Assembly (NCBI RefSeq): GCF_003018235.1
Contig: NZ_CP027437.1
Source: Escherichia coli
Lineage (GTDB): Bacteria; Pseudomonadota; Gammaproteobacteria; Enterobacterales; Enterobacteriaceae
Reading direction: 5' to 3' (one strand)
DNA length: 64,000 nt
The stretch's first letter is position 1; the number at the start of each line of letters is the position of its first letter. A program made the position numbers and the translations under genes. This document shows, piece by piece, positions 2,492 through 58,046 of the stretch. Below the pieces are notes generated by a model. That model was not told the DNA's origin. It made no database searches and worked only from the letters and a program-made list of their open reading frames with translations.

Positions 2492-3340
2492 ATGAAACTC
2501 TATGCCCAGGGCACTTCACTGGACCTTAGCCATCCTCACGTAATGGGGATCCTCAACGTCACGCCTGATTCCTTTTCGGATGGCGGCACGCATAACTCGC
2601 TGATAGATGCGGTGAAACATGCGAATCTGATGATCAACGCTGGCGCGACGATCATTGACGTTGGTGGTGAGTCCACGCGCCCAGGGGCGGCGGAAGTTAG
2701 CGTTGAAGAAGAGTTGCAACGTGTTATTCCTGTGGTTGAGGCAATTGCTCAACGCTTCGAAGTCTGGATCTCGGTAGATACATCCAAACCAGAAGTCATC
2801 CGTGAGTCAGCGAAAGTTGGCGCTCACATTATTAACGATATCCGCTCCCTTTCCGAACCAGGGGCTCTGGAGGCAGCTGCAGAAACCGGTTTACCGGTTT
2901 GTCTGATGCATATGCAGGGAAATCCAAAGACCATGCAGGAAGCCCCGAAGTATGACGATGTCTTTGCAGAAGTGAATCGCTATTTTATTGAGCAAATAGC
3001 ACGTTGCGAGCAGGCGGGTATCGCAAAAGAGAAATTGTTGCTCGACCCCGGATTCGGTTTCGGTAAAAATCTCTCCCATAACTATTCATTACTGGCGCGC
3101 CTGGCTGAATTTCACCATTTCAACCTGCCGCTGTTGGTGGGTATGTCACGAAAATCGATGATTGGGCAGCTGCTGAACGTGGGGCCGTCCGAGCGTCTGA
3201 GCGGTAGTCTGGCTTGTGCGGTCATTGCCGCTATGCAAGGCGCGCATATCATTCGTGTTCATGACGTCAAAGAAACCGTAGAAGCGATGCGGGTGGTGGA
3301 AGCCACTCTGTCTGCAAAGGAAAACAAACGCTATGAGTAA
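2492..3340 (+). CDS. folP: Dihydropteroate synthase
   Basis: ORF 2426..3340; N-terminus [32 protein letters not shown] from the ATG at 2492; 282 aa. Confidence 0.95.
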
Positions 3341-5405: not shown

Positions 5406-6359
5406 CTATTTGCCCAGGCATAAATCTGTTTCATCTAGTTTGAAATCTGTAATTTCTAACTTTTGCATTATTACCGGAAGCACTTGGTGAATTATTCTCA
5501 TGCCAGTGAGGATCTCGTTCATGTATATATCTGGATGAATGCGCGATTTATTGAAATCGAAACTTTCGGCTTCTGCTGCAACGCTAAGTTGGTCAGCGGT
5601 GTTATAAACCATTTCCAGAAGTTCGGCTCTTAACGGGATTCCCGCCCTGAATGCCATCATCTTGAGTTGATTCAACCAATTTTCGTAGTCTTTTTTAACT
5701 CTATAACGAAATTCTTTAAAGTTTGATGCAACAGGAGTATCAATTTCAATTTTGCATGCAGCAAGTGATATCAATGAACTCTGAATATTGATGGCTTCGC
5801 TTGAATAGACATCTAAATCGTCGTCCTGAATCAACTCATCAACATATGCTATGTAGAAACCATAAACATCATTCAGAGCATGATAAATATCATTAATTAC
5901 AGAACAATGAGCATTGCTCTCTAATATCTCCCAAAAAGCCTCTTCTTCGTCAGCATTATCGTCGTCAATATTAAGTCCTTCAGGAAAGGGAAGAGGTGTA
6001 GGAAAACCTATTCGCTTTAATACATCAATTGTTTCTTCAACCAAAAAGCCATCTTCGTCAGTAAGAGGTCGTGTTATATAACCCGTTTCAGCATCCTCCA
6101 TAGCTCGTTGAGCAAGAAAATGGATAAGCCGATCCCATTTCTCAGCATTCTCGACTGAGCCCGTCCATTCAACTAGTTGAGGAGAATAATCTCCTATTTG
6201 TGTAATATTTCTGAACTTTTTTTCCATATCAGCAGACATGTGTTCCCCTTTTTTCCATTTGCTAATTTGTGTTGAGGAAACACCTAAGTGGCTTGCTAAA
6301 TCTTTTTGAGTGCATTTCAGAGTATGTAATGCGAGGCGTACAAAATATTCACCATTCAT
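5406..6359 (-). CDS. HTH (XRE/Cro-CI-like) domain protein with an uncharacterised acidic/helical C-terminal domain, 317 aa
   Basis: Intact 317-aa ORF with an AAGGAA Shine-Dalgarno about 7 nt upstream of the ATG; N-terminal helix-turn-helix signature TQKDLASHLGVSSTQISKWKKGE; no catalytic motif recognised downstream; visibly AT-rich compared with flanking core genes; sits where K-12 has yhbX. Confidence 0.7.
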   Translation of the reverse strand: MNGEYFVRLALHTLKCTQKDLASHLGVSSTQISKWKKGEHMSADMEKKFRNITQIGDYSPQLVEWTGSVENAEKWDRLIHFLAQRAMEDAETGYITRPLTDEDGFLVEETIDVLKRIGFPTPLPFPEGLNIDDDNADEEEAFWEILESNAHCSVINDIYHALNDVYGFYIAYVDELIQDDDLDVYSSEAINIQSSLISLAACKIEIDTPVASNFKEFRYRVKKDYENWLNQLKMMAFRAGIPLRAELLEMVYNTADQLSVAAEAESFDFNKSRIHPDIYMNEILTGMRIIHQVLPVIMQKLEITDFKLDETDLCLGK

Positions 6360-37605: not shown

Positions 37606-39177
37606 TTAAATTAAAGCTTCAAGGCCCGTTTTCACACTTTGAACTTGCGGGCCAATAATTACCTGCACACTGTGAGCATCCAGTACAACCACCGACAGGG
37701 CACCTGCATTCTTTAACGTGGCTTGATCCACTTTCGACATATCTTTCACCACCAAACGTAAACGAGTAATACAGTTATCCAGTGAATCAATATTTTCTTT
37801 TCCGCCAAGCGCACTCAAAATCACAGCATGATCATATTTAGATTTGCCTCGTGCTTTTGAATTTGCTGCAACAGCCTGTGCTGCATCCTCAGATGAGTCT
37901 TCACGGCCTGGGGTTTTAATATCATGCTTAAGGATGTACCAACGGAAAACAAAGAAATAAATAGCAAACCAAACAATACCCACCGGAAGTATTAAATACC
38001 ATTTAGTAGAAGTACCCTGCATGATACCAAATATTAATAAATCCAAAATCCCGCCATCAGTATTACCGATAGTCACGCCCAGGATTGCCATAACCATTAA
38101 GGCCAGACCGGACATGATAATATGGAATATATACAACGCAGGAGCAATAAAGAGGAATAAAAACTCAATTGGTTCAGAAATGCCAGTAACAACAGATACT
38201 AATACGCCTGAAAGCAGTAAGCCTTTAATTACAGGACGATTTTCTGGTTTGGCTGTACGATAAATTGCGTAAGCCACAGCAGGCAAACCAAACATAAAGG
38301 TTGGCATAAAGCCTTGGGATAAAAACGCAGTAACATGTGGGCTAAAGGGAAGACCGGCTTTTAATTCTGCATAGAAAATATTGAGTGCTCCGGCAACTTC
38401 ATGACCGTCGACAATTTCTGTACCGCCCGCAGGTGTGAAGCGAACCATTGCAAGCAAGATATGATGTAGCCCGAAAGGCTTAAGCAAAAGCACACCAACG
38501 CCATAAAGGAACGGGCCGAATACGCTGGTACTTTGAATAATGTGGCCAATACCAGCAATACCCATTGCAACATAGGTCCAGAGCAAAGGAATGGCCTGGC
38601 CTACTAATGATAATGTTAGCGAAGTGATGATGGGTACGAAGCGGATACCGCTAAAGAAGGCAAAGGCATCATGTAATACAGTATCCTGAAAACGTTCGTG
38701 GAGAAAATAAGTTATTACCCCGGCGATGATGCCACCTAAAACGCCCATCTCTAAGGTTTGAATACCTAATACTACAGATTGACCAACCTGCTTCATCGTG
38801 GCAGCATCGGCAAGTTGATGGGTAACAGTGAGATAATAATTAATACTCATGTTCATTAGCATATAGCCAACAAAACCTGAATATGCGCCTACTGCTTTAT
38901 TTCTCTTTGCCATTCCTAATGGAATTGCAATAGCAAACATAACAGGTAGATAAGTAAATGCAAAGCCACCTACCATTGCAATAAAGCCAAATGTAAGTTG
39001 GGTAAGCTCACCACCTAAAAAGGGGAAGTTATTAATTGTTGAGGGGCTGGTTACTGAACTACCTATACCTAACAGAAGTCCCATAAAAGCGAGTAATGAT
39101 ACTGGGAACATAAATGTTTTCCCTAAACTTTGGAAAAACTCCCAGACCCGTGACTTTATAGACTTTTCCTGTGTCAT
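37606..39177 (-). CDS. PTS glucose-family EIICB component (MalX/PtsG-like)
   Basis: 523-aa ORF; multi-pass EIIC domain plus C-terminal EIIB domain with phosphorylation-site motif NCITRLRL; co-directional with and 13 bp upstream of the C-S lyase gene. Confidence 0.85.
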   Translation of the reverse strand: MTQEKSIKSRVWEFFQSLGKTFMFPVSLLAFMGLLLGIGSSVTSPSTINNFPFLGGELTQLTFGFIAMVGGFAFTYLPVMFAIAIPLGMAKRNKAVGAYSGFVGYMLMNMSINYYLTVTHQLADAATMKQVGQSVVLGIQTLEMGVLGGIIAGVITYFLHERFQDTVLHDAFAFFSGIRFVPIITSLTLSLVGQAIPLLWTYVAMGIAGIGHIIQSTSVFGPFLYGVGVLLLKPFGLHHILLAMVRFTPAGGTEIVDGHEVAGALNIFYAELKAGLPFSPHVTAFLSQGFMPTFMFGLPAVAYAIYRTAKPENRPVIKGLLLSGVLVSVVTGISEPIEFLFLFIAPALYIFHIIMSGLALMVMAILGVTIGNTDGGILDLLIFGIMQGTSTKWYLILPVGIVWFAIYFFVFRWYILKHDIKTPGREDSSEDAAQAVAANSKARGKSKYDHAVILSALGGKENIDSLDNCITRLRLVVKDMSKVDQATLKNAGALSVVVLDAHSVQVIIGPQVQSVKTGLEALI

Positions 39178-55026: not shown

Positions 55027-55403
<377 letters not shown>

Positions 55404-55413
55404 GTTTTACGTA

Positions 55414-55438
55414 AAAACCCGCTTCGGCGGGTTTTTGC
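55414..55438 (+). terminator. rnpB terminator
   Basis: Hairpin aaaacccgcttcggcgggttttt. Confidence 0.65.
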
Positions 55439-55509
55439 TTTTGGTGCACAGGGTAAGATGAATAAATATCTACGGTATTAATAATAGACTTTGTAAGAAG
55501 TTATTAAGT

Positions 55510-56697
55510 CTATATTGCATTTAAAAGGTCGTAATTATACGTATAGTCCTCTCTGGTAAAATATTGATTCTCTGAGTTATAAGCTTCATATGTATTATAT
55601 TTTACGACTTCAAAGCAATTGTCTGAAGAATTTTCGTCTTTCTCGAGTGTATTATCTGGAAGGAATTCCTCTGAGCTAGAGTCCTCTATGTTTAAATCTG
55701 TATTGTAATTAATTTTTGGATCGATTAGATAAGCATTTCCTTTGACGCTTTCATAATCTTTAATGATTATATCGATGTAATAATCTATTTTTTCTGATGA
55801 GAATGCTTTCATCTCTGGTAATCTAATTCTGTTCAAGTAATTGTTAATTTTCGATGAGCTTTTATATATTTCTTTTGTTAATTCATTTTCTAATTCATCT
55901 GTTAGAGTTGCTCTTGGTATAGATTCTATAATTGCAAGTCTCATAATTTTTAATTGTTCTTCGGTAATATCCCCAAGCGCATTTAAACAACTTTCGACAA
56001 GCTTAATTTTTTCTTCAGAATACATATCGCTAATGCTTGTTATAACAGGCGTTATTTTTAGTAAATAATCCCAGGAGATTGTGGCGTTTTGTGTTGAACT
56101 AACGAAATTTACCTGAAACATGTTGGCATTAGTAAAATCTGTGTCATCCAATTTAAAAGGATTTAAAATTGTATTGGCCATATGTTTATCTGTAAAATCA
56201 TAAAGTTCTAAATCGACATTCCGTAAGTCCAGAGAGGATAGATCAACTATACCTCCAGTCCCACAACTAAAGATTACGTTCAACCTCCTGATTTCATTGT
56301 AAATGTCTTTCAATGGGCAATTAACATTGATATTGCCTGTGGATATTTCCTGGTTTTTTAACGGTTCATTAATGGTAAGTTCACAGGTATTGTCTGATCG
56401 TTGAATAATTCGGGCGTTATAACCTAAAAAATCCAGACGAAGAGACGAGTCATTATAAAGAATTACATTTTGTAAGTACGCTAATTCTTTTTGAAAATCA
56501 CCAGTGATAATGCATTTCCCACCTGGTTGTAACGCGTTAAGTAAAGTGACCATTTGAACAGAGGTCTGTTTTAGTTTTTCTATGCCTGGTGCTAGTGCTT
56601 CGAGGTTATTTCCTATGGGGCTTTCAGGAAGATCATTCATTTTTCGACGGGCTAAATCACAACTAATATCATTACCAATTGATGAAACAGGGGACAT
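55510..56697 (-). CDS. yhaC: Uncharacterised pentapeptide-repeat-containing protein YhaC
   Basis: 395-aa ORF; very AT-rich; central run of pentapeptide-like repeats (DLSSLDLRNVDLELYDFTDKHMANTILNPFKLDDTDFTNANMF); position next to rnpB matches K-12 yhaC. Confidence 0.85.
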   Translation of the reverse strand: MSPVSSIGNDISCDLARRKMNDLPESPIGNNLEALAPGIEKLKQTSVQMVTLLNALQPGGKCIITGDFQKELAYLQNVILYNDSSLRLDFLGYNARIIQRSDNTCELTINEPLKNQEISTGNINVNCPLKDIYNEIRRLNVIFSCGTGGIVDLSSLDLRNVDLELYDFTDKHMANTILNPFKLDDTDFTNANMFQVNFVSSTQNATISWDYLLKITPVITSISDMYSEEKIKLVESCLNALGDITEEQLKIMRLAIIESIPRATLTDELENELTKEIYKSSSKINNYLNRIRLPEMKAFSSEKIDYYIDIIIKDYESVKGNAYLIDPKINYNTDLNIEDSSSEEFLPDNTLEKDENSSDNCFEVVKYNTYEAYNSENQYFTREDYTYNYDLLNAI

Positions 56698-56718
56698 TAT
56701 TTTATCCTTTATAAATAA

Positions 56719-57288
56719 TCAATAAAAATCATTATTAAAATGATCGGGTGAAAAAAAGAGAATTTGCCAACAATCTGAAGGAATGGCTGTTTTATTAAAG
56801 TACGTAGGGGGGGTTAAGATGGCTTCTTTTCGGGTGAATTTTGCACAATACTTAGAAATCGTCTCCTTAATATATTCCAGCTCTTTTTTATTGACGACTG
56901 AGCAAGTACATTGTTCACCAAAAGGTGCAAAAGTGCCTACATCTAATGTTTGTATGATGTAATCGTCATGTTCTCCTGTAGAAATATCTATGATGAATGG
57001 ACTCATATTTTCCGGTTGGATTCGGATCATGACAGAAGGAATATCGCCTTGATAGAAATTCAATGCAGTAATTGCAGATAATACTCTCCGCAGTTCATTA
57101 CTTATACTGTAAATTTTATTAACGTCATTGGTGGAGACAATTTCTGCAAACTTTCTTTTTACCGTCCAATAATCAATATTTCTATTGTGATTGTTAACCA
57201 CTGCGTGCATTGGCGGGATTGAAGGGTGAAAAATATGTGCAATTGGGAAGCCTTTCATTGATGCCTGCCTTGTCATCATGACAAACAA
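56719..57288 (-). CDS. yhaB: Uncharacterised protein YhaB
   Basis: 189-aa AT-rich ORF immediately downstream of yhaC on the same strand; start is uncertain. Confidence 0.75.
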   Translation of the reverse strand: MFVMMTRQASMKGFPIAHIFHPSIPPMHAVVNNHNRNIDYWTVKRKFAEIVSTNDVNKIYSISNELRRVLSAITALNFYQGDIPSVMIRIQPENMSPFIIDISTGEHDDYIIQTLDVGTFAPFGEQCTCSVVNKKELEYIKETISKYCAKFTRKEAILTPPTYFNKTAIPSDCWQILFFSPDHFNNDFY

Positions 57289-57513
57289 TAATAGATGCTT
57301 ATTTTCCTCGCAGGGTTCTTTCGCACTATCAAAAAACGCTCATTTACCCGGCGTTACAGTAAACGAAGCAACATTCTGTGGCCTACGCCGATCAAAAGCT
57401 CTGTGAAAATTTCCCTTGTTGTCTTTGTCTGACCTTATCGCGGCGACCAGCAATTATTCGTTTTGTGATCCTCAACACAAAATGCTATTCGTCACCTATG
57501 AGGGGAGAAGAAT

Positions 57514-57858
57514 TTATGGAAAACGATTGCATTCACAAAATGACGTCCTGTCAGAAGAGAAAAAGTTGACGTTAATCAATTGTTCGAGATGATCAATATT
57601 TGTATTCGAAATTTTAAAATATTGATAAAATAAATGTTTGTTCTCCAACAAATAGCGTGAAAAAATGTGACGTGCCGCATTATTTATCGCTGAAAATGAT
57701 TTATTTATAATAAAATTTGAGAACTTGCTCATTAAATTTAACTCAAAATTTGCCTGGTAATTATCCGGTAATTGCTTGAAATATGGTCTCAGCCCCTTTT
57801 TTGTATTAACCACATAACGAATGATGTTATCGCCATAAAATATGGTTATCCCCGTCAT
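57514..57858 (-). CDS. tdcR: tdc operon activator TdcR (ORF here is longer than I recall for K-12)
   Basis: ORF 57514..57870 divergent from tdcA, about 190 bp upstream; AT-rich; assignment is by position; boundaries uncertain. Confidence 0.45.
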   Translation of the reverse strand: MTGITIFYGDNIIRYVVNTKKGLRPYFKQLPDNYQANFELNLMSKFSNFIINKSFSAINNAARHIFSRYLLENKHLFYQYFKISNTNIDHLEQLINVNFFSSDRTSFCECNRFP

Positions 57859-58046
57859 TTTTTTTGACAAAAATCAGGGTTTATGCTGATTTTTATACTT
57901 TAACTTATTGATATATAAAGATATTTAATTGGAATAACGATACCATGGAAAGTATTGAAAGTTAATTTGTGAGTGGTCGCACATATCCTGTTCATTTCAT
58001 TTTGATACACTTCATGCCGTCAATGAGGTAATTAACGTAGGTCGTT

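Follow-up and report, generated by a model that had tools for sequence, protein, structure and literature searches.

Anatomy, selection and polymorphism of the AT-rich yhaC-yhaB gene pair beside rnpB in Escherichia coli

The adjacent genes yhaC and yhaB, which lie beside the RNase P RNA gene rnpB, were analyzed in a 64,000-nucleotide stretch of Escherichia coli DNA (RefSeq assembly GCF_003018235.1, contig NZ_CP027437.1; hereafter the window, numbered from its first letter). The two genes form a pair found only in E. coli and Shigella, encode proteins that are under purifying selection, and occur as haplotypes whose age exceeds that of the surrounding chromosome five- to ten-fold. YhaC also contains a short central block of pentapeptide repeats. 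The reading that we tentatively favor is that yhaBC is a silenced, conditionally expressed accessory module in which YhaC would act as a non-enzymatic adaptor, with YhaB as its partner, on a fast-evolving target. The coding sequences are as follows.

55510-56697, minus strand: yhaC, 395 residues, pI 4.43, 32.7% GC (list of open reading frames, NCBIfam model NF007262 and orthologous RefSeq loci)
56719-57258, minus strand: yhaB, 179 residues, pI 6.3, 36.0% GC (from the RefSeq ATG start)

The locus lies on a chromosomal segment with the gene order garR-garK-rnpB-yhaC-yhaB-tdcR-tdcA-tdcB. YhaC matched the NCBIfam "YhaC family" model NF007262 (PRK09716) over its entire length, residues 1-395 on model positions 1-395, with a score of 856.6 bits against a curated equivalog cut-off of 765 bits. 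Annotated E. coli genomes in RefSeq use the names yhaC and yhaB, with the YhaB ortholog described as "protein YhaB," and the K-12 genes yhaC (b3121, P11864) and yhaB (b3120) occupy the same locus in the same order and with the same lengths. The longest mechanical open reading frame for yhaB comprises 189 residues from a TTG start at 57288 (56719-57288, minus strand), and this was the extent given in the original prediction. The reading frame is confirmed, but the start is not, as RefSeq places it at the ATG at 57258. Base composition sets the locus apart from the window, which has a GC content of 50.7%. Third codon positions of yhaC contain 28.0% GC, and 500-bp windows across the locus drop to 29-36%. 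Among all open reading frames of at least 150 residues in the window, yhaC has the lowest GC content, followed by yhaB. The earlier description of the pair as the most AT-rich coding sequences in the window is accurate for frames of that size but not for the 72-residue tdcR, which is lower still at 28.8%.

Inspection of the YhaC polypeptide revealed ten unbroken pentads between residues 151 and 200.

56098-56247, minus strand: pentapeptide-repeat block of YhaC, residues 151-200, net charge approximately -7 (pentad register)

The pentads (VDLSS LDLRN VDLEL YDFTD KHMAN TILNP FKLDD TDFTN ANMFQ VNFVS) resemble the pattern A(D/N)(L/F)xx, with Leu, Phe or Met at all ten centers and Asp or Asn at position i-1 in seven of them. 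A period-5 run of ten such centers did not arise in any of 200,000 shuffles of the YhaC sequence, where the maximum was nine, reached twice (p < 5e-6), and all ten centers were invariant across 15 YhaC alleles with identities down to 64%. In the hit rows inspected, proteins outside the family matched the YhaC profile only within profile positions ∼105-245 and always over the repeat block (140-215). There were 2-12 matching stretches per protein, with E-values down to 2e-11, and all eight of the matches sampled were bona fide pentapeptide-repeat proteins, with PF00805 scores of 53-311 bits. Profile searching of the PDB gave weak matches that included designed repeat proteins and an ungapped alignment over ∼46 residues with Np275/Np276 (2J8K). 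The latter proteins, which have the Rfr fold (PF00805/PF13599), share with YhaC tandem pentads centered on Leu, Phe or Met. A PDB match to methylenetetrahydrofolate dehydrogenase at E = 0.011 was rejected as spurious. YhaC therefore carries the pentad motif and the reciprocal similarity expected of the pentapeptide-repeat family (PF00805/PF13599), but it does not reach the gathering scores, with 14.8 bits against a threshold of 38 for PF13599 and 12.4 against 20.2 for PF00805. The central pentapeptide-like block that had been proposed is thus borne out, but it is short, accounting for 50 of the 395 residues of YhaC (13%) or ∼2.5 coils if canonically folded. Beyond matches to its own family and to pentapeptide-repeat proteins, no signature of an enzyme or of a known system was found for YhaC in Pfam, NCBIfam, PADLOC, PHROGs or the PDB.

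To describe variation at the locus, three haplotypes were compared, namely that of the window, a K-12-like haplotype (L003) and a divergent one that is rare (L002), and the ratio of non-synonymous to synonymous divergence (dN/dS) was obtained by the Nei-Gojobori method. At the DNA level the divergent haplotype is ∼82.5% identical to the others, whereas its YhaC shows 64-67% and its YhaB 75-77% identity. Roughly 21 of 5,426 complete genomes contain it; the divergent YhaC protein (P0034) was recorded in 641 assembly-index blocks, and all five of the loci shown lay at the same chromosomal site. The window and K-12-like haplotypes are closer, with 88% identity in YhaC and 95% in YhaB, and their synonymous divergence (dS) is 0.19 in yhaC versus 0.05-0.10 in the flanks. 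Open reading frames were intact in all three haplotypes, encoding YhaC proteins of 395, 395 and 389 residues and YhaB proteins of 179 residues in each case. The three pairwise comparisons gave the following ranges.

yhaC: dN/dS 0.30-0.36, dS 0.19-0.65
yhaB: dN/dS 0.24-0.47, dS 0.06-0.52
tdcA and the 3' end of garK (flanks): dN/dS 0-0.09, dS 0.04-0.10

Purifying selection thus acts on both yhaC and yhaB, albeit more loosely than on their neighbors. Against the divergent haplotype, dS is 0.5-0.65 in yhaBC and only 0.04-0.10 in tdcA and garK. The hypervariable segment was delimited by its identity to the divergent haplotype.

55404 to ∼57570, both genes with flanking DNA: hypervariable cassette comprising the rnpB-yhaC spacer, yhaC, yhaB and the region upstream of yhaB

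Identity to the divergent haplotype is 66-92% inside this segment and 94-100% outside it, with sharp edges at the 3' end of rnpB and within that of tdcR. Given these edges, the divergent segment behaves as a cassette that comprises yhaC, yhaB and the promoter region of yhaB. One YhaC allele (P0029) is a mosaic of both types, and some yhaC alleles carry in-frame deletions. In a study of 92 wastewater E. coli genomes in which recombination was filtered, yhaC was among the 14 genes with the strongest positive selection (PMC9110714).

Selection is distributed unevenly along YhaC, and the protein can be divided into the following segments in addition to the repeat block.

56263-56523, minus strand: YhaC residues 59-145, the most constrained segment (dN/dS 0.09-0.13 at dS up to 0.9)
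55732-56073, minus strand: YhaC residues 209-322, predicted helical region (low-confidence AlphaFold2 model; dN/dS 0.28-0.65)
55546-55731, minus strand: YhaC residues 323-384, acidic, variable tail rich in Asn, Tyr and Ser (composition and dN/dS)
55513-55545, minus strand: YhaC residues 385-395, C-terminal motif YTY(D/N)YDLLN(A/E)I (allele alignment)

Residues 59-145 possibly form a mixed α/β domain, for which the AlphaFold2 (AF2) model has a low-confidence predicted local distance difference test (pLDDT) score of 53-64. The repeat block and its margins (residues 146-208) have a dN/dS of ∼0.26. In the tail (residues 323-384), dN/dS rises to 0.60-0.88 in comparison with the divergent allele, and a 6-residue indel is present. 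The C-terminal motif is nevertheless near-invariant within this variable tail, with only one or two non-synonymous differences between deep alleles. Low-complexity ends rich in Asn, Ser and Tyr had been ascribed to YhaC, and this is correct for the C-terminal end, where residues 326-395 contain 15.7% Asn, 12.9% Glu, 11.4% Asp, 11.4% Tyr and 8.6% Ser and have a pI of 4.05. It is not correct for the N-terminal 50 residues, which are of ordinary complexity and open with the invariant sequence MxPVSSIGND.

YhaB gave no match in the copies of Pfam, NCBIfam, PADLOC and PHROGs that were used and none in the PDB at E <= 5. All of its relatives (74-96% identity) carry the precomputed label PF27690 "UCP004546," which is the family of YhaB itself; the PF27690 model is absent from the local copy of Pfam, against which YhaB found no match. 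That YhaB has no recognizable motif, as stated in the original prediction, therefore stands, this own-family label being the only one found. The two genes are on the same strand and are separated by 21 nucleotides, within which an AAGGA Shine-Dalgarno sequence lies 9 nucleotides before the yhaC ATG. No other 100 bp of the cassette is as well conserved as the junction between them (92-93% identity versus 66-85% elsewhere). YhaB and YhaC are probably translationally coupled. In a 2025 phylostratigraphy study, yhaB-yhaC was classified as a homogeneous young operon of phylostratum 9 (PMC12218254).

Several further features of yhaB were observed. At 56695-56721 of the window, the yhaB TGA and the yhaC ATG are in one frame, with the 21 nucleotides between them containing no further stop, and a 547-residue database protein (P0019) that bears the YhaB family label and also matches all of YhaC looks fused. 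Within its last third, yhaB has two homopolymer tracts, C7 at 56807-56813 (coding strand) and T7 at 56751-56757, and five database variants (P0076, P0077, P0078, P0084 and P0092) are frameshifted from approximately these tracts. An apparent compensated frame change is also present, the window reading PPTY where K-12 reads PLVH, with the downstream frame kept.

Loss of the pair is frequent. Megablast matched the locus in 5,422 of the 5,426 complete genomes of E. coli, and in 4,316 at least 80% of it was covered. In ∼1,100 (∼20%), only 40% of the query was covered and yhaBC is deleted, leaving ∼80% of genomes with an intact pair. The rnpB-tdcR interval of the deletion allele (positions 3148-3314 of locus L001) retains three scraps, which RefSeq labels as partial pseudogenes: the last ∼45 bp of yhaC, a piece read as yhaC codons ∼92-107, and the first ∼100 bp of yhaB. 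The separate scraps imply at least two deletion events rather than one clean excision. The deletion strain retains tdcR despite the loss of yhaBC. The type strain ATCC 11775 carries the deletion, and the deletion lineage, a large one in which the pair has decayed, is presumably phylogroup B2. The possibility that the pair would prove to be decaying pseudogenes across strains is accordingly realized in the ∼20% of genomes that hold remnants and not in the rest, where dN/dS is 0.24-0.47. An engineered K-12 strain tolerated a nonsense mutation in the pair (PMC7907822).

Searches for relatives covered up to ∼15 billion proteins, with exhaustive comparison to every protein for YhaC and word-indexed searching for YhaB. 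The word-indexed search of 5.8 billion clusters returned only E. coli and Shigella (74 matches for YhaC, 22 for YhaB and 26 for the YhaB profile). When 1.84 billion representative proteins were searched exhaustively with the YhaC profile in HMMER, the only full-length relatives were members of the YhaC family. A scan of one genome per GTDB species yielded only two short contigs, although its patterns were strict and divergent orthologs in other Escherichia could be missed. These contigs, from metagenome-assembled genomes of a Collinsella sp. (L004, JAIJJM010000798.1; YhaC identity 92%) and an uncultured Bacteroides sp. (L005, CAUHML010000178.1; 87%), are almost certainly mis-binned E. coli sequences. 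If, as we assume, E. coli is represented in GTDB by its type strain, ATCC 11775, the deletion in that strain would explain why no E. coli match was obtained in the scan. No match to yhaC was found in phages, and the plasmid collection yielded only one record of 354 kb and three the size of a chromosome (4.8-4.9 Mb). The latter three, PLSDB entries NZ_CP134663.1, NZ_CP141089.1 and NZ_OL790696.1, carry the chromosomal yhaC locus and appear to be chromosomes filed as plasmids.

The pair had been interpreted as old horizontally acquired cargo next to a stable RNA gene. A foreign origin is supported by composition and by published predictions, the yhaC region having been called foreign by three methods (GIST, Nakamura et al., and Lawrence & Ochman; tabulated in PMC3661553). 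The AT-rich stretch from the end of rnpB to the start of tdcA (55404-58046, tdcR included) contains 33.7% GC against 50.7% for the window, and this deviant composition is combined with the variable presence of the pair (deleted in ∼1,100 of 5,426 genomes), as is expected of an island. The other marks of an island are lacking. The only open reading frames in the islet are yhaC, yhaB and tdcR, with no integrase or mobility gene; no repeat of the rnpB 3' end was found at the tdcR/tdcA border; and there are no att-like repeats around the islet, the 113-bp copies of the K-12-like strain being tandem rather than flanking. A classical integrative island at a stable-RNA gene is thus not supported, there being neither an integrase nor a copy of the rnpB 3' end at the far border, and neither a donor nor an integration mechanism can be named for yhaBC.

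Published K-12 data bear on the regulation of the pair. Within yhaC lies a 706-bp "promoter island" to which H-NS binds "according to all studies" (chromatin immunoprecipitation; PMC3661553, Table 1), which lends substance to the earlier suggestion of H-NS silencing as far as binding is concerned. Counts made in the window were less informative, with 18 promoter-like hexamers found at the locus versus 11.7 ± 3.0 expected, a modest excess, and an uninformative ∼2-fold enrichment of H-NS motifs in the islet. In having a promoter island, yhaC resembles other H-NS-silenced islets of K-12, such as appY and the ygeG-ygeK region of E. coli type III secretion system 2 (ETT2), but yhaBC differs from these in having no mobility genes, att-like repeats or identifiable donor. 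Two regulator sites lie upstream of yhaB.

57464-57479, minus strand: CRP site ∼200 bp upstream of the yhaB ATG (exact match to the K-12 site)
57566-57579, minus strand: FNR-like site upstream of yhaB, lying in the 3' portion of tdcR (exact match to the K-12 sequence)

In K-12 the CRP site was assigned to yhaB by in vitro Footprint-seq (PMC12871828), and a peak labeled yhaB was obtained for FNR by chromatin immunoprecipitation on microarrays (PMC1802558). Peaks for the RpoS and RpoH holoenzymes in yhaB were reported from systematic evolution of ligands by exponential enrichment (PMC5493296). The main text of PMC11128740 does not include yhaC, and the string "YHAc" in PMC6597613 denotes acetate yield rather than the gene.

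These observations can be accommodated by the following model. The yhaB-yhaC operon would encode real proteins but would normally be silent under a coat of H-NS. Given the H-NS-coated AT-rich DNA and, upstream of yhaB, a CRP site and an FNR-bound site, expression would most likely be limited to anaerobic, catabolite-poor (gut-like) conditions, as for the neighboring tdc operon. YhaC would be a cytoplasmic binding or adaptor protein in which a tightly constrained N-terminal domain is followed by a 2.5-turn acidic pentapeptide β-helix stub serving as a rigid interaction surface, then by a helical region and by a floppy acidic Tyr/Asn-rich tail that ends in a docking-type motif. YhaB, being co-inherited, would be the partner of YhaC. 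The combination of cassette-swapped ancient haplotypes, a near-neutral tail, published positive selection and frequent loss suggests that the target or partner is fast-evolving, such as a phage, competitor or host factor, rather than a housekeeping component.

A number of points weigh against this model. The binding activity of YhaC and its interaction with YhaB are putative. Compared with established pentapeptide-repeat proteins, YhaC has just ten pentads and sub-threshold Pfam scores, and the i-2 residue, which is normally small, is bulky (Leu, Tyr, Lys or Phe) in four of the ten pentads. Given these bulky residues and the sub-threshold scores, the block may fail to adopt a canonical helical fold. 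AF2 built no β-helix: with a shallow alignment of 15 near-identical sequences, the mean pLDDT for YhaC was 36.1 with no confident fold, and residues 150-205 had values of 23-32 and no strands. A similar result was obtained for YhaB (5 sequences; mean pLDDT 34.5, no confident fold). The neighbors of yhaBC are metabolic genes and do not constitute a defense island. The raised dS of the cassette could reflect import from an unsampled relative instead of balancing selection. Finally, the pair is dispensable, as judged from its loss in ∼20% of genomes, the tolerated nonsense mutation and the frameshifted yhaB variants.

Other explanations for the same data were considered. It is unlikely that YhaC is an orphan substrate of a T3SS (type III secretion system), either a leftover of ETT2 or one that the system encoded at the locus of enterocyte effacement could use, with YhaB as its chaperone or as a second substrate and with the tail docking on a host protein. 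Short repeat blocks are precedented in the proven effector EspY3 (8 and 9 pentads), and PipB2 combines ∼30 pentads with a functional C-terminal part (PMC6313403). EspY3, the EspX family and PipB/PipB2 have, as does YhaC, an N-terminal non-repeat region, a short repeat block and a C-terminal part, and the E. coli EspX and EspY3 genes lie in AT-rich backbone islets like that of yhaBC. YhaC has no Sec signal, its N terminus is polar and Ser-rich in addition to having an invariant opening, and its C-terminal motif is conserved; the AT-rich locus, H-NS binding, positive selection and lineage-specific loss would also fit a secreted substrate. The presence of the deletion in the type strain is in keeping with this proposal, ATCC 11775 belonging to phylogroup B2, which we take to be a group without ETT2. 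By contrast, exhaustive profile searching revealed no full-length relative beyond the YhaC family and no similarity to effector families outside the repeats (there is no detectable homology to EspX, EspY, PipB2 or NleL), and no chain of NleL or another effector was among the PDB matches. Direct reading of YhaC reveals no WEx5F motif, W209 having no Phe at +7, and no homology to an effector domain such as a HECT-like one was detected. With 179 residues and a pI of 6.3, YhaB is unlike the small acidic class I chaperones. Purifying selection is also seen in K-12-type lineages without a working T3SS, but this is a weak argument since espX genes behave likewise. No link between yhaC and secretion was found in the literature searched. 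The effector-like lead in the original prediction is neither strengthened nor dismissed by these results.

An anti-phage or other intragenomic-conflict role is also unlikely, whether yhaBC is regarded as an H-NS-silenced module of the toxin-immunity or abortive-infection kind or, in a broader proposal that we consider comparably improbable, as an E. coli-specific conflict locus (a new phage defense or a secreted host-interaction factor) whose ancient haplotypes are maintained by balancing or frequency-dependent selection and swapped as a cassette between rnpB and tdcR. The presence or absence of two genes as a cassette, the deep co-diverged alleles spanning both genes and the promoter, and the published positive selection on yhaC are all consistent with such a module. 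In addition, one protein matched through the repeat block (P0137) is a fusion of pentapeptide repeats to a TIR domain, and pentapeptide modules therefore do occur beside this domain, which is used in several known defense systems. However, neither YhaB nor YhaC matched a PADLOC-DB 2.0 family at E <= 1, PHROGs returned only noise (E > 0.09), and nuclease, NTPase, TIR and other effector domains were absent according to Pfam and NCBIfam. The neighboring genes are those of tdc and gar metabolism, phages and true plasmids lack the pair, and confinement to E. coli is unusual for defense systems.

That the locus is an inert foreign remnant drifting to loss, with silencing removing both cost and benefit, is distinctly unlikely. 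The degraded remnants in ∼20% of complete genomes, the yhaB variants frameshifted at the C7 and T7 tracts, the in-frame yhaC deletions and the nonsense mutation tolerated in K-12 would be expected of such a remnant, as would H-NS coating and the lack of a known phenotype in the literature searched. Nevertheless, a dN/dS of 0.24-0.36 over a dS of ∼0.5-0.65, falling to ∼0.1 in the N-terminal domain, cannot be reconciled with neutrality over long periods. A 395-codon open reading frame has survived in DNA of 33% GC in three deep haplotypes with invariant repeat centers, and the apparent compensated frame change in yhaB preserves the downstream frame. Very improbable is a further proposal, prompted by the mention of Qnr/MfpA DNA mimics in the original prediction, in which YhaC would be a DNA mimic of the Qnr/MfpA type that protects gyrase or topoisomerase IV or acts on DNA-binding proteins. 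YhaC does share a pentapeptide motif and an acidic surface with Qnr, MfpA, AlbG and McbG (net charge approximately -7 over the 50 residues of the block, pI 4.43 overall). Qnr, MfpA and AlbG are proteins of ∼180-220 residues that consist almost wholly of repeat (∼8 or more coils) and form dimeric, DNA-sized rods. YhaC, by contrast, is a multi-domain protein of 395 residues with ten pentads, only 13% of it repeat, and the PDB search at E <= 1 returned no Qnr, MfpA, AlbG or McbG chain. A Gene Ontology label quoted in PMC9110714 favors the DNA-mimic proposal, but there is no context of antibiotic biosynthesis or resistance, and this tempting reading is discarded here as wrong.

No functional assignment of yhaBC was found, in agreement with the earlier statement that the genes had never been assigned, and they belong to the set of genes still without an assignment in the best-studied of all bacteria. 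The genes themselves, their composition, H-NS binding, predicted foreign origin and youth, and positive selection on yhaC are already published or annotated. New are the exact length of the repeat block and its degree of conservation, the orphan status at a scale of ∼15 billion proteins, domain-resolved selection, the cassette boundaries and the anatomy of the deletion allele. The existing annotation is thereby refined, with no function assigned. Being selected, restricted to E. coli and unusually polymorphic, yhaB and yhaC can reasonably be put forward as candidates for a role in a particular niche or in conflict.

The remaining features of the locus are those that flank the pair.

55027-55403, plus strand: rnpB, RNase P RNA (Rfam RF00010, 318.6 bits)
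55411-55438, between the convergent genes: G+C-rich hairpin between rnpB and yhaC (terminator scan of the plus strand)
57514-57732, minus strand: tdcR, 72 residues, 28.8% GC (NCBIfam NF008507, 165.7 bits)

T-runs occur on both strands of the hairpin at 55411-55438, the minus strand of which reads AAAAACCCGCCGAAGCGGGTTTTTAC, and for this reason it is probably a bidirectional terminator serving rnpB and, presumably, yhaC. The mechanical open reading frame for tdcR (57514-57870) comprises 118 residues from a TTG start, and the NCBIfam TdcR model spans only the last 72 of these.

The spacer between rnpB and yhaC differs in length between haplotypes. The K-12-like locus contains 3.5 tandem copies of a 113-bp unit (positions 960-1352), which begins ∼23 nucleotides before the end of rnpB and includes the rnpB terminator hairpin, whereas the window contains one copy (55381-55493). 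The spacer is consequently 106 bp here versus ∼613 bp in the K-12-like strain. Several genome matches to the locus were split in two, the records spanning 112-507 bp more than the query, and the copy number of the unit seems to vary between strains. Elsewhere in the window, the next lowest GC contents among long open reading frames were those at 5406-6359 (minus strand, 317 residues, 37.9%) and 37606-39177 (minus strand, 523 residues, 41.7%), the latter lying inside a low-GC stretch at 36-39.5 kb.

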